A program made the translations under genes and the position numbers. This document shows positions 26,092-61,641 of a DNA stretch of 64,000 nt, piece after piece. The DNA lies in the IMG/VR virus record IMGVR_UViG_3300025137_000026, positions 1-64,000 of that record. One strand, 5' to 3'. Every line of letters begins with the position of its first letter. The stretch's first letter is position 1. The notes beneath the pieces are model-generated. The model had not been told where the DNA came from. It did no database searches and was given only the letters and a program-made list of their open reading frames with translations. The DNA is from a virus.

Positions 26092-26112
26092 TAACCTAAA
26101 GTATTAGGTTAC
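26091..26112. promoter_or_regulatory. Perfect palindrome GTAACCTAA-N4-TTAGGTTAC
   Basis: 9-4-9 inverted repeat upstream of the basic microprotein cluster. Confidence 0.75.
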
Positions 26113-26268
26113 ATATATGGCTATCCCTAATAATTGTAAGAGAAGAGATTTAAGCATCAATAAACCCAAGAGGAAAATAACCAATGGTAAGAAGAAAACC
26201 TAAGAAGTGTTGCTGTCAGAAAAAGGCAGATAAAACTAAGTTAAAACTTAACAAGCACATAAAGCGTC

Positions 26269-26517
26269 GTGGCAAGAAAGCCTAGAATTTATAAGAAGGG
26301 TGCTAAGGACTCTGAGTACGATAGGTACAATGGTAAGCCTGAGCAAATAAAGCGTCGTGCGCAGAGGAATAAGGCTAGGAAGAAAGCCGGATGTAAGAAA
26401 GGGCAAGAGGCTCACCATGTGAAGGGCAAGCGTACAGGAAACCTTACTGGTCCTGTGAAATGTATTAGCAAGAAGAAGAATCGCTCAATGCAACCCAAGA
26501 GAGGGAAGAAGAAATGA
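26269..26517 (+). CDS. Small basic HNH-like protein
   Basis: KRRAQRNKAR...AHHVKG...ISKKKNRS resembles short phage HNH-type proteins. Confidence 0.6.
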   Translation: MARKPRIYKKGAKDSEYDRYNGKPEQIKRRAQRNKARKKAGCKKGQEAHHVKGKRTGNLTGPVKCISKKKNRSMQPKRGKKK

Positions 26518-26723
26518 GCAAAATGGAATACCATGAGCAGGTTGATGCTTTTTCCATAGAGCTAGAGAATCTAATTAGTAGATTCCAGAACGAATTTGAT
26601 CTGACTTTAGAGACAATGATTGGATGCCTTGAGTGTACTAAATCAATATTATCACAACCTATGATCATAGATATGGGTTCAGAAATTTTAGAGGAAGATG
26701 GCGAAGAAGAAACAGAAGTCTAA
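26514..26723 (+). CDS. Small acidic hypothetical protein
   Basis: 69 aa, overlap-coupled; LENLISRFQNEFDL..IGCLE. Confidence 0.7.
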   Translation: MSKMEYHEQVDAFSIELENLISRFQNEFDLTLETMIGCLECTKSILSQPMIIDMGSEILEEDGEEETEV

Positions 26724-26859
26724 GAAAGACGCTTGCTACCATAAGGTTAAGAAGCGCTACACTAAGTGGCCTAGTGCATATGCATCAGGTGCATTAGTTA
26801 AATGCCGAAAGTCAGGAGCTAAGAACTGGGGGAACAAGTCCAAGAAGAAAAAGAAGTAA
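26698..26859 (+). CDS. Small basic protein (53 aa, not in ORF track)
   Basis: MAKKKQKSKKDACYHKVKKRYTKWPSAYASGALVKCRKSGAKNWGNKSKKKKK; KDACY/WPSAYASG motif is familiar from marine phages. Confidence 0.8.
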   Translation: MAKKKQKSKKDACYHKVKKRYTKWPSAYASGALVKCRKSGAKNWGNKSKKKKK

Positions 26860-27086
26860 TGGCTAAAGAGGGATTAAAGAAATGGTTCTCTAGAAATGGG
26901 GGCAAGGGATGGATAGATTGTCGCACTGGAAAGCCTTGTGGAAGGAAGTCAGCAAAGAAAGGGAAAAGTAAAAGACCATACCCAGCATGTAGACCAACTA
27001 AGTCCCAATGTAACTCTAGCATGAAGAAGAAGACTGGACCTAAAAGAATTTCGTGGAAGAAAAAAACTAAAAAACGAGGAAAATAA
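26859..27086 (+). CDS. Small basic Cys-containing protein
   Basis: GLKKWF...WID..TGKPCGR...YPACRP motif familiar from marine phages; TAATG coupling. Confidence 0.8.
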   Translation: MAKEGLKKWFSRNGGKGWIDCRTGKPCGRKSAKKGKSKRPYPACRPTKSQCNSSMKKKTGPKRISWKKKTKKRGK

Positions 27087-27087
27087 A

Positions 27088-27219
27088 ATGCCAAATATAA
27101 ATGGGAAAAAATTCCCTTACACTAAAAAAGGAAAAGCCGCTGCTAAAGCATATAAAGCAAAGAAACCTGCCGGAAAGAAACCTATGGGGAAGAAGCCTAT
27201 GGGAAGAAAGAAGTACTAA
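27088..27219 (+). CDS. Small basic protein (43 aa, not in ORF track)
   Basis: MPNINGKKFPYTKKGKAAAKAYKAKKPAGKKPMGKKPMGRKKY. Confidence 0.75.
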   Translation: MPNINGKKFPYTKKGKAAAKAYKAKKPAGKKPMGKKPMGRKKY

Positions 27220-27470
27220 TGCCAGCTAAGAAGAAAGCTTGTAAGCCCACGAAGGGTAAGCGCTTTGCTAAGAGAGTAAAGGGCAAGTGTCGTTCTTTCG
27301 GGCAGAAGGGTCAAGCCAAGGGTGGGGGTGACCGAATACGTCCTGGGACAAAGAAGGGTGATGCCTATTGCGCACGTTCTGCTGGTATAAAGAAATGCAA
27401 GAAGCCTCCCTGTGCTAATGCACTCTCGAGAAAGAAATGGAAATGTAGAGGCAAGAAATCAATGAAATGA
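27219..27470 (+). CDS. Small basic protein (SFG..G...YCARS...WKC family)
   Basis: RSFGQKG...GTKKGDAYCARS...SRKKWKC. Confidence 0.8.
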   Translation: MPAKKKACKPTKGKRFAKRVKGKCRSFGQKGQAKGGGDRIRPGTKKGDAYCARSAGIKKCKKPPCANALSRKKWKCRGKKSMK

Positions 27471-27601
27471 AGAAGACAAGAACTCAAGTTAATAACATCA
27501 AGGAAAAGAATAAGTGCGGTATTAAAGCTAAGAATTCATTCAAGGCAGGAATGAGCATTGGGCGAAATATGAAAAAGCCTAAAGGTAAAAAGAAGAAATG
27601 A
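27467..27601 (+). CDS. Small basic protein (44 aa, not in ORF track)
   Basis: MKKTRTQVNNIKEKNKCGIKAKNSFKAGMSIGRNMKKPKGKKKK; ATGA overlaps on both sides. Confidence 0.6.
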   Translation: MKKTRTQVNNIKEKNKCGIKAKNSFKAGMSIGRNMKKPKGKKKK

Positions 27602-27819
27602 TTGACTCTCCTTTCGTCTTACTTGGCATTGGTGCTGCTGTATCTGTGCTTGGATTCTTTATTAAGAGGATGAAGGAGGAGATAGATGTGCTTAAATCTA
27701 AGAACACTAGGCTTGAGATTAATCAGGCAAGAAACTACGAGAAGATAATTAACCTAGAGAAGGTAACTGAAGACCGAAGGGAAGATATAAAGCGTTTATT
27801 TGATGTACTGGGCAAGTAG
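27598..27819 (+). CDS. Small membrane-anchored coiled-coil protein (holin/lysis-accessory candidate)
   Basis: One N-terminal TM helix plus coiled coil; last gene of the late operon. Confidence 0.5.
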   Translation: MIDSPFVLLGIGAAVSVLGFFIKRMKEEIDVLKSKNTRLEINQARNYEKIINLEKVTEDRREDIKRLFDVLGK

Positions 27820-43281: not shown

Positions 43282-43497
43282 TCATGCTTTCCCTTTCCTT
43301 GCCCACTTTAAGCGAGTCTTCGAGTTAGGTTGCCCATGATGAGGGCGGTAAGATTTAGTCTTGCCCTTACGAATAGGAGGAACGAGTGACTCGTCCCCAA
43401 CATTCATGTCGAGATGGAAGTAATCAGAGTACTGACCTCTGATCATTCCATCGATGTGACTCAGGTTTTTGCGCTGACCATTGTATACTACTTTCAT
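43282..43497 (-). CDS. Small basic hypothetical protein
   Basis: 71-aa ORF; GTAACCCAA 28 nt upstream. Confidence 0.55.
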   Translation of the reverse strand: MKVVYNGQRKNLSHIDGMIRGQYSDYFHLDMNVGDESLVPPIRKGKTKSYRPHHGQPNSKTRLKWARKGKA

Positions 43498-43618
43498 TTT
43501 ATTGTATCCTAGTTATTTGGGTTACAGAAGGCCATCTAAAATGATGGCAAGAATCCCCATGCCAAATAGCATAGGGACGAGAATGTTTGGTTTATTCAAT
43601 AAAGATTCAATCATGGTC

Positions 43619-44044
43619 TTACCTAGTTTGATCGATGACTGCTCCTTTAGTGGCAACCAACTGATAGTTGATATGATCGCGCTTGGCATCACACAAAATG
43701 GTGCAACCAATGATATGGGCTAACTCCATTGCCTCGGTCATGATGTTCTTTGCCTCTTCCTCTAAGAGATGCCTCAATTCGGCATACTCATAACCTTGTC
43801 CCATATCAGCATCCCACATATCGTGACATGCAGTGGTTATTTTCTCGTTTACCTTGATGAGTTTATTCAGAAGCCCCATGATCTTTGGCAAGGGACGTTC
43901 AGGTTCTGCAACACAGGGAAGCAGATTTGCAAGTTGGTAGAATGAATCATCCATATGTATTTTGTCTGTTTTAACGAGTAGACCTCTCGATTGAATTAAT
44001 TTGTTAGTGAATGCAAGGGACGAACAAAGTATTATTTTGCTCAT
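43619..44044 (-). CDS. Hypothetical early protein (first gene after the terminator)
   Basis: 141-aa ORF; start may be 43954. Confidence 0.55.
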   Translation of the reverse strand: MSKIILCSSLAFTNKLIQSRGLLVKTDKIHMDDSFYQLANLLPCVAEPERPLPKIMGLLNKLIKVNEKITTACHDMWDADMGQGYEYAELRHLLEEEAKNIMTEAMELAHIIGCTILCDAKRDHINYQLVATKGAVIDQTR

Positions 44045-44054
44045 CTCCTAAGGA

Positions 44055-44097
44055 AAATGAAAAAGCCCTCCCAGAACGTTTAGCTCTGGAAGGGCTT
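44055..44097 (-). terminator. Rho-independent terminator, minus strand
   Basis: 13-bp stem aagcccttccaga/tctgggagggctt (one U-G wobble only on the minus strand) followed by a U-tract. Confidence 0.85.
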
Positions 44098-45300
44098 AGT
44101 TTTGCATCGCATATGTAGCGTCAGCGAGATACGACAGCCATACATACCGAATACGTGTTGGATACGTATAATCTACGTAGCGTACTACGTAACAAATACG
44201 TATCGATTAACGATGTGATCGCAGATATTGCACTGCGGTTAATATGAACACCCTCTAAGGTAGCTCCCTAGTTATAGTACTAGTTACTTCACTCTTTCAT
44301 GGTTAACAACTCCACTAGGCATTGAATGATACCTAAGCATTTTTTCCGTTAGTCTAACGTTCTATCCCAAAGTTGCATACGGATTACTAATCTAGACAAG
44401 TTCATTGATCCACGTAGAGACTCACGTGTATGTACCCCATTAAATTCACATAGCGTGCTAATAGCCATGCTTCGCCCCCTTCCTCTCATCGACTACGTCC
44501 ATAAGAAGTAGGTTGGGTGGGAGATTGAAATATTCGATCAATGCACCAAATTGTAGAAATTATAGCCATGCTCCGAACATGATTCTAATATACTTATCTA
44601 TACGACTGCCCTTTTTCCAACTAGTTGTAACTAGTCGAGACTTTATCGCAATGCGGTTCGCGCATCGAACTCAATCAAAGTCTTTTCGTCCGCCCATGAG
44701 GAATTTTCCCCCACACTTGGACACCGCCATTCTTGACGCTTTGATTAAGCTAAATTCTGTGATTGATCCTAAGAGACAATCCTTTCGGGATTGATAACAC
44801 AACGAGTTGTTTCTGCCATGCTTATTCTTCTACGCGTGTCGCTATAAGTTTATTTGCTTTGTTCTTTAATGGTACGGAGTACTAGGTTAAGTCCGACTAT
44901 TTGCACCGACTTTGCAGATCGTACTAGTTTATTAAAAAACCGATCCTTTGATGGCAAAGCCTTTGCAACATGACGCTTTCACGCTAAATCCTAAGATATA
45001 CCGAACGCTACAAATTTCTGCGTCGATTGATCACAATTTATAATTGCTACATAGATAATTTTTATTCCATTGAAATAAAAATGTTTAACTTTCAAAGAGC
45101 ATCACAAGCCCCAATTTTTGGGGAACAAATCGAAAAAGTTTTATCTCAAATTTTGAGCAATTTCGATTTGCTATGATATAAAAAGAACATGACTCACAAT
45201 CATCTAAATTTTAGACTTGCGGGCTTGCCAACCGCTTAAAGCTTGTTTGCTATTCTCTTTGCCTTTGCCTAGTCCAACGCTAGGCAAAGGACATCTTCGC
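44060..45300 (-). ncRNA. Candidate large structured non-coding RNA (~1.2 kb)
   Basis: No credible ORF; at least 9 hairpins; UACG and GAAA loops and G-U pairs favour the minus strand; ends in a terminator. Confidence 0.55.
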
Positions 45301-45305
45301 AGCGC

Positions 45306-45935
45306 TTAGCTATTTTCGAGCGCTTCGAGCCGTGCCATTAGATCGGCGTTGGCTTGTTGCAATTCGTCAATCTTTTGTTGCGCACTTCTATTGTTAGCCA
45401 TGTCATGATTTTTGTGGGTAACTTTTTTCAGTCGCTGATATTTTGCGACTGACTCGCCATTATTTTTTACCTTCATTCCTGTAAGGATTAATCCTTCTCT
45501 TTCCTCAATTTCCGCTCTGTAGGCGTTGGCTAAGTTTTTAAGATAGTTAACGCCATTGTAGAATCCATTTATATATCTATTCTTTACTGATAGCGTTAAA
45601 CGTTTTCCACCGCCGTTCTTTGGTTCTTTGCCAAACTCGTTAGCTAGCTCTTCATTTAGCGCTTTGCCGATTTCAGTCGGCGTGAGGTTTTTCAATTTTG
45701 GCTCAATCTTTCGAAAGGCATCCCAATGATAATTCGCGCTTGTATCTTTGTTTTCAATTTCAGTAACTTGCTCATTAGTTAGGCAATTTAGATTCGAGAA
45801 TTTAATCTCATAGCCAACTTGATTGCCTCCACTTTGAACTAACGTTTCCTTGTTAGTTGTAACTTTACTCAGTAACATTGTAGTAGTAAAGCCATTGGTT
45901 TGACTTTGTTTATTTTCTTGGATTGTAAGGCTCAT
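45306..45935 (-). CDS. Hypothetical first-early protein (likely start MSLTIQE)
   Basis: Long ORF at the head of the leftward unit; basic, with a C-terminal coiled coil. Confidence 0.7.
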   Translation of the reverse strand: MSLTIQENKQSQTNGFTTTMLLSKVTTNKETLVQSGGNQVGYEIKFSNLNCLTNEQVTEIENKDTSANYHWDAFRKIEPKLKNLTPTEIGKALNEELANEFGKEPKNGGGKRLTLSVKNRYINGFYNGVNYLKNLANAYRAEIEEREGLILTGMKVKNNGESVAKYQRLKKVTHKNHDMANNRSAQQKIDELQQANADLMARLEALENS

Positions 45936-46041
45936 AACTTTTATATTTTGATTTGATTTGGTTATTGTTGATATACATAAGTGTACACTAAGGATATTGC
46001 CACAAGCAAAAGCTTTGCCTATCAATGACTTATGTAATATG

Positions 46042-46067
46042 TGTTACCTTATGCCCATAAGGTTACA
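46042..46067. promoter_or_regulatory. Imperfect palindrome TGTTACCTTA-N6-TAAGGTTACA
   Basis: Inverted repeat with 6-bp spacer at the divergence point, next to a G-rich/AT-rich tract. Confidence 0.5.
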
Positions 46068-46190
46068 AAGGGGGGCTTGGGGGGGAGCCGGGCCGGCCTG
46101 TATATTATATATATGCACCGTTTCTGAACTTTCCTTATTCCAGCACAATCCGACTTGCAGCTTTGTTAGTTACCAAGTAATATAAGTTAC

Positions 46191-57265: not shown

Positions 57266-57311
57266 CGGTAATGTTACGTAGTGACTACGTAGTGACTACG
57301 TAACATTACCG
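57266..57311. repeat. 46-bp near-perfect palindrome with three 11-bp-phased TACGTA units (candidate origin)
   Basis: cggtaatgttacgtagt-g-actacgtagt-g-actacgtaacattaccg. Confidence 0.85.
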
Positions 57312-57473
57312 TAGTCTGACCGGATTATGAGTTAGGTAAATGTACAAAAACAACGGCTAAAGCAGGCCCCCTTTAGCGAACTTAGGAACTTAGCTCTGGA
57401 GTTGGGGTGCAAGTAGCTGATATGAAGTACTTTACGGAAACTGAGCAAAATTGACATTTGGCAGAGAGCTTGA

Positions 57474-57588: not shown

Positions 57589-58593
57589 TTAAGGGCATAT
57601 TTTAAAAAAGTCGTTCGCTTCTTCCGGCCCAACTCCTGTATTCAAATAATGTTTGTTGAATACCTTTTCATTGCTGTGTCCCATACACCGCATAGCCCAG
57701 CTTTTACCACCATAAAAATATCCGTAAGTTCCAAATGAATGCCTAGCTCCGTCATGAGGGTAAATTATCCCTGAGGCAACTATTGCTTTCTTTCTATTCT
57801 TCGCAAAGACACGATACCGATTAAGCGGGCCAATTTTGCCCAAACAATGTTTTTTATACTTCCCGATCCAATCCCATAGATTCGGTGGAAGGTCAGTTAG
57901 TTTCCGATTCTTTCGTGTTTTGGAAGACTTACCCTCAATGATAATTAAGTTTTTCTCAGGGTAAAATAATTCCCATTTTAATCGATCCAATTCATAAGGT
58001 CTTATTCCTGCAAAAAAGGAAAGTGCAGTTGCTACTTTATAGCGATCCATTGTGTTAGATAAAAGCTCTGCTGTTTCCTCAGGAGTTAGGATTCCGATTA
58101 ATTCTTCGTCCTCAAACTTAGACTCCCATTTTACTTTGTAGAAATGAGTTTGAGTTAAATCCGATTCATGGCACCAGTTAAGAAAACCACCGACCTCTGA
58201 CCGAGTAGTTTTTCGAGTAGTTTCTGTATTTCCTAAAAGAATATATTCCTTAAAAATCTGCCGTGTGACCTTAGATAATCGAGCGTCCTTCATCCACCTG
58301 ACAAAATGATTACATTTAGTTCTTCTGGAGGTTATTGTAATGGGTCTAGCACCTAGGTCAGATAAGTTATCTAAGTGGTTTTTTAAAGCCGTAGATAGCA
58401 ATATAGCGCTAGGCTCAGACTCTTCATGGTAACCCTCTATGAAAGGTTTTTCTAGTTCACGTTTATATTCGTAAGCTATTTCCCTGGACGAAAGATATTT
58501 TCTTTTTCTTTTTTTTCCAATTTTTAGTTCAACACACCAAGCACTTTCACCTAAATCTTTTTTCCTCTGATCAATGTAGACTCTTATTTTCAT
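57589..58593 (-). CDS. int: Phage integrase (tyrosine recombinase #2); likely start MKIRVY
   Basis: AGIRPYE, SKT, HDGARHS, MGHS, HY; adjacent attP. Confidence 0.92.
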   Translation of the reverse strand: MKIRVYIDQRKKDLGESAWCVELKIGKKRKRKYLSSREIAYEYKRELEKPFIEGYHEESEPSAILLSTALKNHLDNLSDLGARPITITSRRTKCNHFVRWMKDARLSKVTRQIFKEYILLGNTETTRKTTRSEVGGFLNWCHESDLTQTHFYKVKWESKFEDEELIGILTPEETAELLSNTMDRYKVATALSFFAGIRPYELDRLKWELFYPEKNLIIIEGKSSKTRKNRKLTDLPPNLWDWIGKYKKHCLGKIGPLNRYRVFAKNRKKAIVASGIIYPHDGARHSFGTYGYFYGGKSWAMRCMGHSNEKVFNKHYLNTGVGPEEANDFFKICP

Positions 58594-58696
58594 GCTTTTC
58601 CCGTGACAAAACCCGTGACAAATTTTACGGAAAACAGCTTCCCGTGACAAAATCGTGACAGATTTTTCGCATAACCATATTACACTAGTCAACATA

Positions 58697-58739
58697 AAAA
58701 AACACCCCAAGCCCTTTGTTTATAGGGGCTTGAGGTGTT
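58697..58739 (-). terminator. Terminator downstream of the tRNA 3' half in attP
   Basis: aacacc.caagccc/gggcttg.ggtgtt stem plus T-run on the minus strand, just after the CCA. Confidence 0.7.
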
Positions 58740-59476: not shown

Positions 59477-60125
59477 CACCGATGAGCTGGCTACCCTCAT
59501 GCGTAAGCATGATGGAAACTACGGATCGGCATCTAAGGAATTAGGTATAGGTGAGCATAACCTTCGTGAGAAGGTGAGGCGTGACCCGAAGCTTAAAGCT
59601 TTATGGCAGGTTGCTGGAGAGCAAGGTCATGCTCCAACCGAAGTTGAGTTAATGGCTAGATCGGAACCGCCGGAAGCTCCAAGCCATAAGGATTTTATTG
59701 GAGCTTTAAAGAAAAACGGCAAAGAAGTCTTCATGAACGATATCGAAGGGATGCTTAAAAATCCTGACAATATTGAGAAGCTAAAAGTATTTGAGAACTT
59801 ACAGGGAGGTATAGGACGCTTGATGTCCAATGCCCTAGAGGTAACACAAAAGATTGCGATTCGTCAGAATATGGCTTTGTTCGAGGTAGCAGAGAAATTA
59901 AGGGACGATATCTCTGGCGGTGGATTAGATCCTGAGGAAGAATTATTAAGGACTAAATTATTTCTTCAAACGGCTGAGCAACAAGGCAAGTTTTACGACA
60001 GGTTGCTACATGGGTTGGATTTAATGATTAAGATGTCCGAAAAAGACAAAAAGGAAGATAAGCGTAAGCCTGGGTTCAGACCACTCAAAGAAATGCAAGC
60101 AGATGCCAAGGCTGAAGAAGATTGA
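59454..60125 (+). CDS. Putative terminase small subunit
   Basis: N-terminal HTH (GNYGSASKELGI), helical body, overlaps the terL start. Confidence 0.6.
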   Translation: MPRRRKYSTDELATLMRKHDGNYGSASKELGIGEHNLREKVRRDPKLKALWQVAGEQGHAPTEVELMARSEPPEAPSHKDFIGALKKNGKEVFMNDIEGMLKNPDNIEKLKVFENLQGGIGRLMSNALEVTQKIAIRQNMALFEVAEKLRDDISGGGLDPEEELLRTKLFLQTAEQQGKFYDRLLHGLDLMIKMSEKDKKEDKRKPGFRPLKEMQADAKAEED

Positions 60126-61641
60126 TCCTAAGGCTTTTCTTGGTGCTTTTGACGAAGAAGAAGAAGAGCAAGTAGAGCAGGAACCATGGAGTCCTTCACT
60201 ATCTGGAAGCCAGCAGGAATTATTTGAGAGCAGAGCTAAGTATGTCCTTGCCTATGGAGAAAGAGCATCGGGTAAAACTTTTGTATTAGGTGGTCATAAA
60301 TTGGTTCGTCATGCCTATGAGAATTTCAATGCTCTGTGTTTAATAGTTGTTGGAGTTAAGTCACAAGCAACCCAAGGGGGAGTTTGGCATAAATTGCAGA
60401 CAGAAATATTACCTGAGTGGAAAGAGGGTCTTGGGCTTGAGCATACGGACGAGAAAATGGATTTACAGAAAGCACCATATATTGATGTGCAGAACCGATA
60501 TGGTGGTTGGTCTAGAATAAGTCTTATGTCTGCACCATTTGGGAACATTTTGTCTGATCGAATAAAAGGTTTTGAGCCTAGCTATGTTTTCGTGGATGAG
60601 CTAACAAACCTAGAGTCTCCGGCTTATTTCAATGCCATCGTTCAGCAGTTGGGAAGGCGTCAAGGAATTGAGGGCTGTCAACAATACTGCGCTGCCTGCA
60701 ATCCGAGTGGCCCGTCTCACTGGGTGTACAAAAGATTCTTTGAGTCACCATTAGATGAATACGGTAATTACAATAAAGCCTACCATGTAGTACATGTTAG
60801 GATTGCCGAGAATGTAGATAACTTACCCGAGGGTTACTATGACCGAGTTATGGAAGCGGTTTCTAATGACCCAATTGAAGCAAAACGAATGCTTGAGGGT
60901 GAGTGGGTAGATAGACCATCGGGCGATGCTATATTAGCTCCGTACTTTTCAAAACCTTTACATGTCGTAGGTGATTCTCGAAAGGGAATAGTTCCCAACC
61001 CAAGTTTTCCTGTAATAATTGGATATGACCCTGGGGCAGTAAACAATGCGATGATATTTATGCAGTGCCTGATTGGGAAAGAGAAATCGATTTGGACGGT
61101 ATTTGATGAATTAGTTACTATAAATAAGAAGATTCCTTACACCACAATAATCCCTCTTATATACAGGAAGATGGCATATTGGAATGAACGTGTCGGTCAA
61201 AAGCTAAAATTCGTACACATTTCAGATAACTCAGCTTTCAACCAGTACCGAGCAAAAACAGGATCCTACGATGTTCGAGACTTTGAGGAAATATCAAAGG
61301 AGAAGTGTGACCATTTTGACCTTGAGCCTATTCGTATGAAGGCAGCTCCAAAATTCCAAGGTTCAGTCGAGGGTAGGGTGAGGCTAATGATTGCCAAACT
61401 TGTGCAGGAGGAAATAATATTTTCAGCCCAATGCACTGAGTCTTTAAAAAGTATTCGTCACCTTTCTTCAGAAAAACAAAAAGATGGCAAGTATGACCCT
61501 ACACTAGGCTTAAAACCAAGGCGTTCAGTCTATATTCATGCCTTCGATGCACTGACATATCCAATTATGTATTATGATGTTAAATCAGGAACACCATATG
61601 CTAATGTGAAAACCTCAAGTATAATAGAAATTAATGCTTGA
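60103..61641 (+). CDS. terL: Terminase large subunit
   Basis: GERASGKT, VFVDE, CNPSGPSHW, GEW, IGYDPG, HAFDALTY. Confidence 0.93.
   Translation: MPRLKKIDPKAFLGAFDEEEEEQVEQEPWSPSLSGSQQELFESRAKYVLAYGERASGKTFVLGGHKLVRHAYENFNALCLIVVGVKSQATQGGVWHKLQTEILPEWKEGLGLEHTDEKMDLQKAPYIDVQNRYGGWSRISLMSAPFGNILSDRIKGFEPSYVFVDELTNLESPAYFNAIVQQLGRRQGIEGCQQYCAACNPSGPSHWVYKRFFESPLDEYGNYNKAYHVVHVRIAENVDNLPEGYYDRVMEAVSNDPIEAKRMLEGEWVDRPSGDAILAPYFSKPLHVVGDSRKGIVPNPSFPVIIGYDPGAVNNAMIFMQCLIGKEKSIWTVFDELVTINKKIPYTTIIPLIYRKMAYWNERVGQKLKFVHISDNSAFNQYRAKTGSYDVRDFEEISKEKCDHFDLEPIRMKAAPKFQGSVEGRVRLMIAKLVQEEIIFSAQCTESLKSIRHLSSEKQKDGKYDPTLGLKPRRSVYIHAFDALTYPIMYYDVKSGTPYANVKTSSIIEINA

Follow-up and report, generated by a model that had tools for sequence, protein, structure and literature searches.

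A conserved minus-strand noncoding RNA locus with a putative twister-like ribozyme at its head in a marine phage genome

An ORF-free stretch of 1.26 kb in the genome of an uncultured marine phage probably represents a real, conserved noncoding RNA that is encoded on the minus strand, begins with a putative ribozyme, is modular in construction, ends at a terminator, and likely acts in trans. The stretch has no coding capacity, folds in excess of controls, and keeps both its place and its length in related genomes. In addition, a central junction and several hairpins covary, G.U pairs are specific to one strand, and the sequence is present in RNA libraries.

The locus, its relatives, and its coding capacity

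The DNA analyzed here, referred to as the window, is the first 64 kb (64,000 nucleotides) of a 76,944-bp IMG/VR virus record (IMGVR_UViG_3300025137_000026) that is rated complete. The virus is remote from cultured phages, its large terminase (60103–61641) being only ~25% identical to any of theirs, and a sequence search of the PDB with its giant 3682-aa protein gave no match. Genes are tightly packed, and the stretch (44045–45305) sits between two minus-strand genes, 45306–45935 and 43619–44044. The former is the first leftward gene beside a divergent intergenic region. Its product, the “anchor” protein, comprises 209 aa from the ATG, has a basic, coiled-coil C-terminus, and could be aligned with eight homologues. 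No Pfam, PHROG, or fold match was obtained for it: the structural model has a pLDDT of 63.9, Foldseek returned nothing at E ≤ 0.001, VIA gave Z ≤ 5.2, which is noise level, and a comparison with Atlas gave no match. A JGI name attached to one homologue (P0007), “RuvC/YqgF-like”, was rejected as being without Pfam backing. Neither the region nor the anchor protein was matched by blastn or tblastn against cultured phages, genome contigs searched with the junction pattern (see below) and the anchor protein held no copy of either, and single-protein anchors searched in viral contigs gave no match.

Alignment of the eight homologues yielded L003, a complete genome of 75.6 kb, and two partial relatives, L002 and L004. 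A further relative, L007, was found by a search with the terminator sequence, while three pattern searches with conserved blocks matched only relatives that were already known. An ORF-free gap occurs at the same place in L003 (~1.23 kb) and L007 (~1.20 kb), the range being 1.20–1.26 kb. The anchor protein is only ~50% identical among relatives, yet islands within the gap share their order and conserved spacing. For instance, the hairpin H1 (45262–45290) next to this protein is 97–100% identical in L003, L002, and L004, a 52-nt block is 86% identical, and the terminator stem is identical.

These genomes form a mosaic. In L007, the upstream gene differs and the 5′-most 440 nt of the gap are unrelated and show no excess folding (z +1.3), whereas the 3′ 450 nt match L003 at 94% identity. 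The L007 upstream gene (887–1324) encodes 145 aa, of which only ~40 N-terminal residues are common with the 209–224-aa anchor protein; it appears that the C-terminal part of this gene was exchanged along with the 5′ third of the RNA region. On the other side of the locus, the 141-aa gene at 43619–44044 (minus strand) is found in the window and L007 and is absent from L003. It is an indel directly behind the terminator and attests to mosaic exchange around the RNA locus. A small conserved hydrophobic ORF of ~31–36 aa ending in ...GLL* (43522–43617, minus strand; ~2150–2262 in L003) comes immediately after the terminator in L003, whereas in the window the additional 141-aa gene lies between the two; it probably encodes a genuine small membrane protein.

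The earlier note on this DNA, made from the sequence alone, had pointed to a long noncoding stretch, and such it proved to be: 44045–45305 is the largest ORF-free gap in the window and is without a credible ORF. Each of its six frames carries 19–33 stops, with all three kinds of stop in every frame, so no recoded genetic code opens the stretch. The only ORF of at least 80 aa is a plus-strand one with a TTG start (44513–44794) that was judged not credible, and the chance ORFs of the stretch gave no family match. An explanation through small conserved proteins, which the note had itself raised against its proposal, or through decayed genes is most improbable. It would draw on plus-strand ORFs of 62–105 aa that overlap the central block in all three genomes (window, L003, and L007), and on a 36-aa stretch that aligns at 53% between the window and L003. 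However, the only residues common to all three come from an invariant 12-mer (GGUGUYCAAGUG), and the starts, lengths, and frames of the ORFs differ. Moreover, these ORFs have no family matches, tblastx similarity appears in several frames at once, and changes are paired across helix arms rather than placed at third codon positions. As protein, the plus-strand ORFs over the core are not conserved.

A putative self-cleaving head

The stretch seems to start with a twister-like self-cleaving ribozyme, which together with H1 spans 45180–45290 on the minus strand. H1 itself (45262–45290) has an 11-bp perfect stem and a 7-nt loop, CGUUGGA, and its single change in L003 yields a U.G pair on the minus strand. 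Directly behind H1, positions 895–954 of L003 match the Rfam twister-P1 model (RF03160) with 32.6 bits (E 3.5e-4 in 6 kb, 1e-5 in 171 nt), which is half the Rfam gathering score of 67.2. The window’s own copy had no cmscan match at E ≤ 10, and a search across the entire window at E ≤ 1 produced no ribozyme-type noise.

The homologous core in the window (45180–45260, minus strand) was given a parse checked by script. It consists of a 10-bp P1 (45260–45251 with 45189–45180), a P2 of ACAA/UUGU (45246–45243 with 45199–45196), L2 GC (45242–45241), a P4 of GCG/CGC (45235–45233 with 45221–45219), L4 GUUGGCAAGCC (45232–45222), and a P5 hairpin (45215–45203), with GAGUCA as the L1 strand. Two pseudoknots are predicted, one of 2 bp (GC/GC, 45242–41 with 45224–23) and one of 3 bp (GGC/GUC with one G.U, 45229–27 with 45193–91). 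The predicted cut, C45249|A45248, lies in the junction GC^AA. In L003, P1 has 5 bp, P2 reads ACGU/ACGU, and P4 reads AUG/CAU; the essential stems P1, P2 (4 bp), and P4 are thus present in both genomes, and P2 and P4 show two compensatory pairs each between them. Both pseudoknots can pair in either genome, with letters that are off consensus yet still complementary.

Compared with the twister P1 family (RF03160), the candidate has the P1-P2-P4 layout, a 4-bp P2, the N^A cleavage dinucleotide in J1-2, L2 GC, the L4 AAGCC motif, and two pseudoknots that are able to form. P0, P3, and P5 are optional in twisters, and a 4-bp P2 is known (PMC5408937); here, H1 sits where P0 would, P3 is confined to L003, and P5 to the window, all at the family positions. 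Aligned to twister-P1, the segments UAA, GCC, GGU, CAAGCCC, AA, and GAG are matched, while CCC of L4 and GG of L1 are replaced, and the 3-bp pseudoknot GGC/GUC departs from the near-invariant CCC/GGG of the family. In the window, moreover, the cut is preceded by C rather than U, and L4 contains an additional U that a variant strain lacks. Twisters are reported to tolerate stem flaws as well as G.U pairs in their pseudoknots (PMC11662667). Since the score falls short of the curated one, the element is filed as “twister-like”, and it is a putative divergent member or variant of the twister class. Two hairpins that the earlier note had listed as independent, 45262–45290 and 45203–45215, are best read as its P0 and P5 arms, and H1 is likely the 3′-end hairpin of the cut upstream mRNA, the optional P0 arm, or both.

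At the same relative place, L007 holds a match to two HDV-ribozyme models (local E 0.0047 and 0.078), with scores of 25.6 against a gathering score of 44 for RF02682 and 24.8 against 50 for RF00094; both models expect a P4, which in L007 is replaced by 6 nt. The parse gives a P1 of 7 bp starting with G.U, a P2 of 6 bp, P3 GCC/GGC, L3 UCCACGU, P1.1 CC/GG, and a J4/2 of CUAA (in GCUAA) with the catalytic C first, which corresponds to the class layout of a nested double pseudoknot. A 5-bp hairpin ends 3 nt ahead of the predicted cut site. Minimal HDV-like ribozymes that lack P4 are known in phages (PMC10879173). The L007 candidate resembles these “theta” ribozymes in its nested, P4-less double pseudoknot, in the catalytic C that opens J4/2, and in a predicted cut at its own 5′ edge that would define the 3′ end of the upstream RNA. 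In contrast to them, it follows a protein-coding gene and a hairpin rather than a tRNA, it scores below gathering, and it is seen in L007 and not in the window.

Two unrelated putative self-cutters at one position argue that cutting at this place is a selected function. That both classes occupy this place in sister phages, with a gene on one side and the conserved noncoding RNA on the other, points to a simple job for them, namely host-independent cutting that would give a protected 3′ end to the mRNA and a protected 5′ end to the noncoding RNA.

Structural modules and the terminator

Against dinucleotide shuffles, 44060–45300 folds with an MFE z of −5.9 (minus strand) and −4.9 (plus strand), compared with +0.66, −0.80, and −0.56 for three 1241-nt coding controls. 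The outcome that the earlier note had named as speaking against its proposal, folding no better than in dinucleotide-shuffled controls, is thus not what was observed. In 150-nt windows, the local excess lies at 44000–44300, 44600–44750, and 45150–45400, and at 44600–44750 it is confined to the minus strand (z −4.35). Pairwise consensus folds gave z −5.0 and −6.1 over the first (5′) 300 alignment columns, with −3.8 to −7.6 over the last (3′) 450, and consensus folding reached −158.9 kcal/mol on the minus strand vs −116.2 kcal/mol on the complement. In the middle of the stretch, consensus folding shows no consensus structure. Similarly, pairs from single-sequence MFE folds were kept in L003 at 0.38–0.39, no better than in slid and coding controls (0.28–0.45).

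These results bear differently on the parts of the original proposal of a large structured RNA. Conserved, covarying structure is found in the junction, in the 5′ hairpins, and in the 3′ domain, with consensus-fold z of about −4 to −7.6 at both ends. The middle and the whole-region projection, judged on what are effectively two to three lineages, do not share in it, and the idea of one large, ornate fold lacks support on three counts: the projection onto L003 does not exceed the controls, the middle is without a consensus, and the 5′ third of L007 is unstructured. Taken together, the results favor a chain of conserved modules over a giant fold.

All of the hairpins listed in the note, as well as the terminator, are present in the sequence. 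Of those near the 5′ end, a long hairpin at 45124–45172 (minus strand) encloses a small one at 45145–45157 and has 18 pairs; between the window and the L003 clade, five of these are changed on both sides and two on one side, and three are unpaired in the window. One variant change within it (45131 C>T) fits the plus strand better. The adjacent hairpin at 45109–45123 (minus strand; 6-bp stem, AAA triloop) is kept in L003 and L004, with one pair changed on both sides. At 45058–45082 (minus strand), there is an A/U-rich hairpin, and L003 has a hairpin of different sequence at the aligned place. The hairpins 45109–45123, 45145–45157, and 45203–45215, all perfect, with 3-nt loops on stems of 5–6 bp, have an AAWWWTT core in common; no other hairpin in the whole 76.9-kb genome has this core. 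A reading of the AAA-loop hairpins as N4-type hairpin promoters was set aside in view of the missing PDB match for the giant protein; the stems of these hairpins also differ from one another. Further along, a block at 44805–44884 (minus strand) is 74% identical to L003 over 82 nt and has no assigned structure, and the hairpin at 44777–44793, though present in the window, is not conserved in L003.

The strongest and best-supported element of the stretch is an 84-nt three-way junction at 44668–44751 on the minus strand. Its 31 aligned pairs form a closing helix of 13 bp and two hairpins, one of 4 bp and one of 5+9 bp that carries an AAA loop, and the joining strands GGUGUYCAAG and GGGCGRACGA are conserved. 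Across three lineages, 92 of 92 cells are paired. Nearly half of the pairs (14 of 31) are changed on both sides, compared with 5.5 ± 1.8 in shuffles (0 of 500 reach 14) and 0–2 in slid controls. In 23 of the 92 cells the pair is G.U, several of these pairs being invariant; since the opposite strand would have C.A mismatches in their place, it is the minus strand to which the fold belongs. The junction occurs in one copy per genome and, with 14 covarying pairs in three sequences, offers a compact new motif for structural and binding studies. As a separate observation, a hairpin at 27103–27116, GGGAAAAAATTCCC, resembles its apical hairpin; it lies in a gene-poor zone (26092–27819) where two gene arms converge.

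Downstream, a 3′ domain of conserved hairpins (44098–44430, minus strand; pairwise consensus-fold z −4.2, −7.6, and −3.8) includes a long TACGU-rich hairpin at 44161–44204. It is 94% identical between L003 and L007 despite their mosaic flanks. Likewise, a DNA variant of 44054–44284 has no other letters and two gaps, while flanking genes differ by 5–8%. The domain leads into an intrinsic terminator at 44055–44097, called on the minus strand by a scan, with 15 pairs (arms 44063–44097) and a T-run. The note’s claim of a clear minus-strand terminator is thus confirmed, as is its claim that a mismatch there becomes G-U on the minus strand, all three genomes having a U.G pair in the stem. The terminator stem does not vary among them, and the loop does.

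Two other accounts of this structure deserve consideration. It is rather unlikely that only the ribozyme, H1, and the terminator do work, as processing and end signals of the upstream mRNA, with the ~1 kb between them a tolerated spacer that happens to hold hairpins. The projection test, with no global conservation of structure, the weak or absent consensus fold of the middle, and the exchange of the 5′ part in L007 for unstructured sequence are all in keeping with a spacer. However, a spacer would hardly show the strong covariation of the junction, a 3′ domain that is 94–100% conserved where the flanking genes differ, or a length kept at 1.20–1.26 kb in three mosaic genomes.

Very unlikely, in turn, is an element that works as DNA, such as a replication origin or an operator array, in which the 11-bp-phased TACGT units at 44152–44204 and A/T-centred palindromes would bind protein. 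The pattern TACGT-N5-7-TACGT does occur 11 times in the window (0.11 expected), all at 44152–44204 and 57275–57302, and both strands fold better than shuffles. Yet L003, the complete relative, has such an array only at the RNA locus, without a second one like that at 57270–57314, and its left arm has lost TACGT and still pairs through G.U. Outer stems of the hairpins vary and stay complementary, the invariant G.U pairs would be C.A mismatches on the opposite strand, and the stretch is present in RNA libraries. The second site in the window (57270–57314) is a near-perfect 45-bp palindrome of three TACGTAGTGAC units in a 490-nt gap. A gene with weak similarity to tyrosine recombinases (57589–58710; Pfam E 0.0011) ends ~275 nt away, and the palindrome could serve in recombination or telomere resolution.

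Transcripts, proposed mechanism, and known phage RNAs

Three independent seawater studies yielded RNA-library contigs that map to 44089–45199, although such contigs carry no strand and DNA may be present in RNA libraries. One contig of 1179 nt, from a variant strain, bridges this region. Within the terminator, RNA contigs of two studies break off (44089 and 44091) at a place that a DNA contig reads through, a weak hint of a 3′ end. In contrast, contig ends near 45191–45199 were rejected as a 5′ end of the transcript because they appear in both DNA and RNA assemblies. No RNA contigs lie on 43400–44057 and only thin pieces on the anchor gene, but contigs are no gauge of expression level and their depth is unfit for ranking genes.

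The preferred interpretation, a noncoding feature at the level of minus-strand RNA that ends at the terminator, retains that much of the earlier note and suggests the following course of events. The locus would be transcribed together with the upstream gene or just after it. Directly behind the stop codon and H1, the twister-like ribozyme would cut the transcript at C45249|A45248, leaving the upstream mRNA with a hairpin-protected end that bears a 2′,3′-cyclic phosphate. The cut and the terminator would between them release a noncoding RNA of ~1.19 kb (45248 to ~44055). With its 5′-OH end buried in the ribozyme fold and its 3′ end formed by the terminator hairpin, both ends of the RNA should resist decay. 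The RNA itself would be a chain of modules, namely AAA-triloop hairpins, the three-way junction, and the conserved 3′ domain, with a conserved core of ~700 nt from junction to terminator. Most likely it would act in trans, as a protein scaffold or decoy. The self-cleavage, stability, and trans action in this scheme are inferred. Two further ideas of the earlier note, immediate-early timing and an RNP with the anchor protein, are conjectural, no informative family or fold having emerged for that protein.

Action in cis would be a different matter. Structured RNA, above all the 3′ domain with the terminator, might control read-through into the leftward gene cluster by attenuation or processive antitermination, with no free RNA being made. 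We regard such a leader as unlikely. In its favor, the terminator lies only ~10 nt before the RBS and ATG of the gene at 43619–44044, which leaves no room for a promoter behind the terminator, and the terminator and 3′ domain are the best-kept parts of the stretch. On the other hand, the downstream gene varies (the 141-aa gene is absent in L003), and there is no conserved antiterminator, the sole candidate, GGAAGGGGGC, lying in a stretch missing from L003. Furthermore, the junction occurs once per genome and not at several operon heads, a leader has no need of a ribozyme that frees the RNA from the mRNA, and 1.2 kb far exceeds known leaders.

With regard to known large RNAs, for which the earlier note had suggested an Rfam search, Rfam 15 gave no family match in the window or its relatives at gathering score or at E ≤ 1–10, the ribozyme models aside. 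The stretch is therefore not GOLLD, ROOL, OLE, or another curated family. It resembles GOLLD, ROOL, and OLE (PMC12286853) in being large, noncoding, phage-associated, and rich in conserved hairpins. Unlike them, it lacks signs of one global fold or of multimers, has a putative ribozyme at its head, and evolves in a modular and mosaic fashion. Also near in kind are the transcripts of ICP1, where a 1-kb ORF-less gap yields an abundant orphan lncRNA of ~800 nt (PMC7567579), and of the lytic phage K, which makes abundant orphan lncRNAs (PMC9241854). All of these come from gaps of ~1 kb without genes in lytic-type phage genomes that yield RNA. RNA-seq of cultured phage revealed those of ICP1 and phage K, to which no sequence relation is expected, and the present one is based on comparative structure and metatranscriptome contigs.

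A broader and more tentative reading is that the locus represents a new class of marine-phage RNA, ~1.2 kb long, ribozyme-processed, and end-protected, in which unrelated cutters (twister-like, HDV-like) would be interchangeable and the core would target, in trans, a protein of the host or the phage during takeover. If true, it would provide a concrete biological role for orphan self-cleaving phage ribozymes. Most twister and HDV-like ribozymes still lack an assigned natural role, as do GOLLD, ROOL, the ICP1 lncRNA, and similar large noncoding RNAs of phages. The two puzzles meet at this locus, where such ribozymes are paired with a large phage noncoding RNA.

Two observations concern sequences outside the stretch. 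The divergent intergenic region beside the anchor gene (46015–46135 in the window, 686–806 in L007, and 3–219 in L003) contains a G-rich tract (46070–46100) and is 80–89% identical among relatives, exceeding the flanking genes. The complete L003 contig begins exactly at this region, which could hold regulatory sites or a genome end. Finally, the motif GTAACCYAA has 12 sites between 2819 and 61663 of the window (e.g., 43517–43525) vs 0.9 expected, with none inside the noncoding stretch. Most sites lie just 5′ of gene starts, and the motif is probably a phage promoter or regulatory motif.
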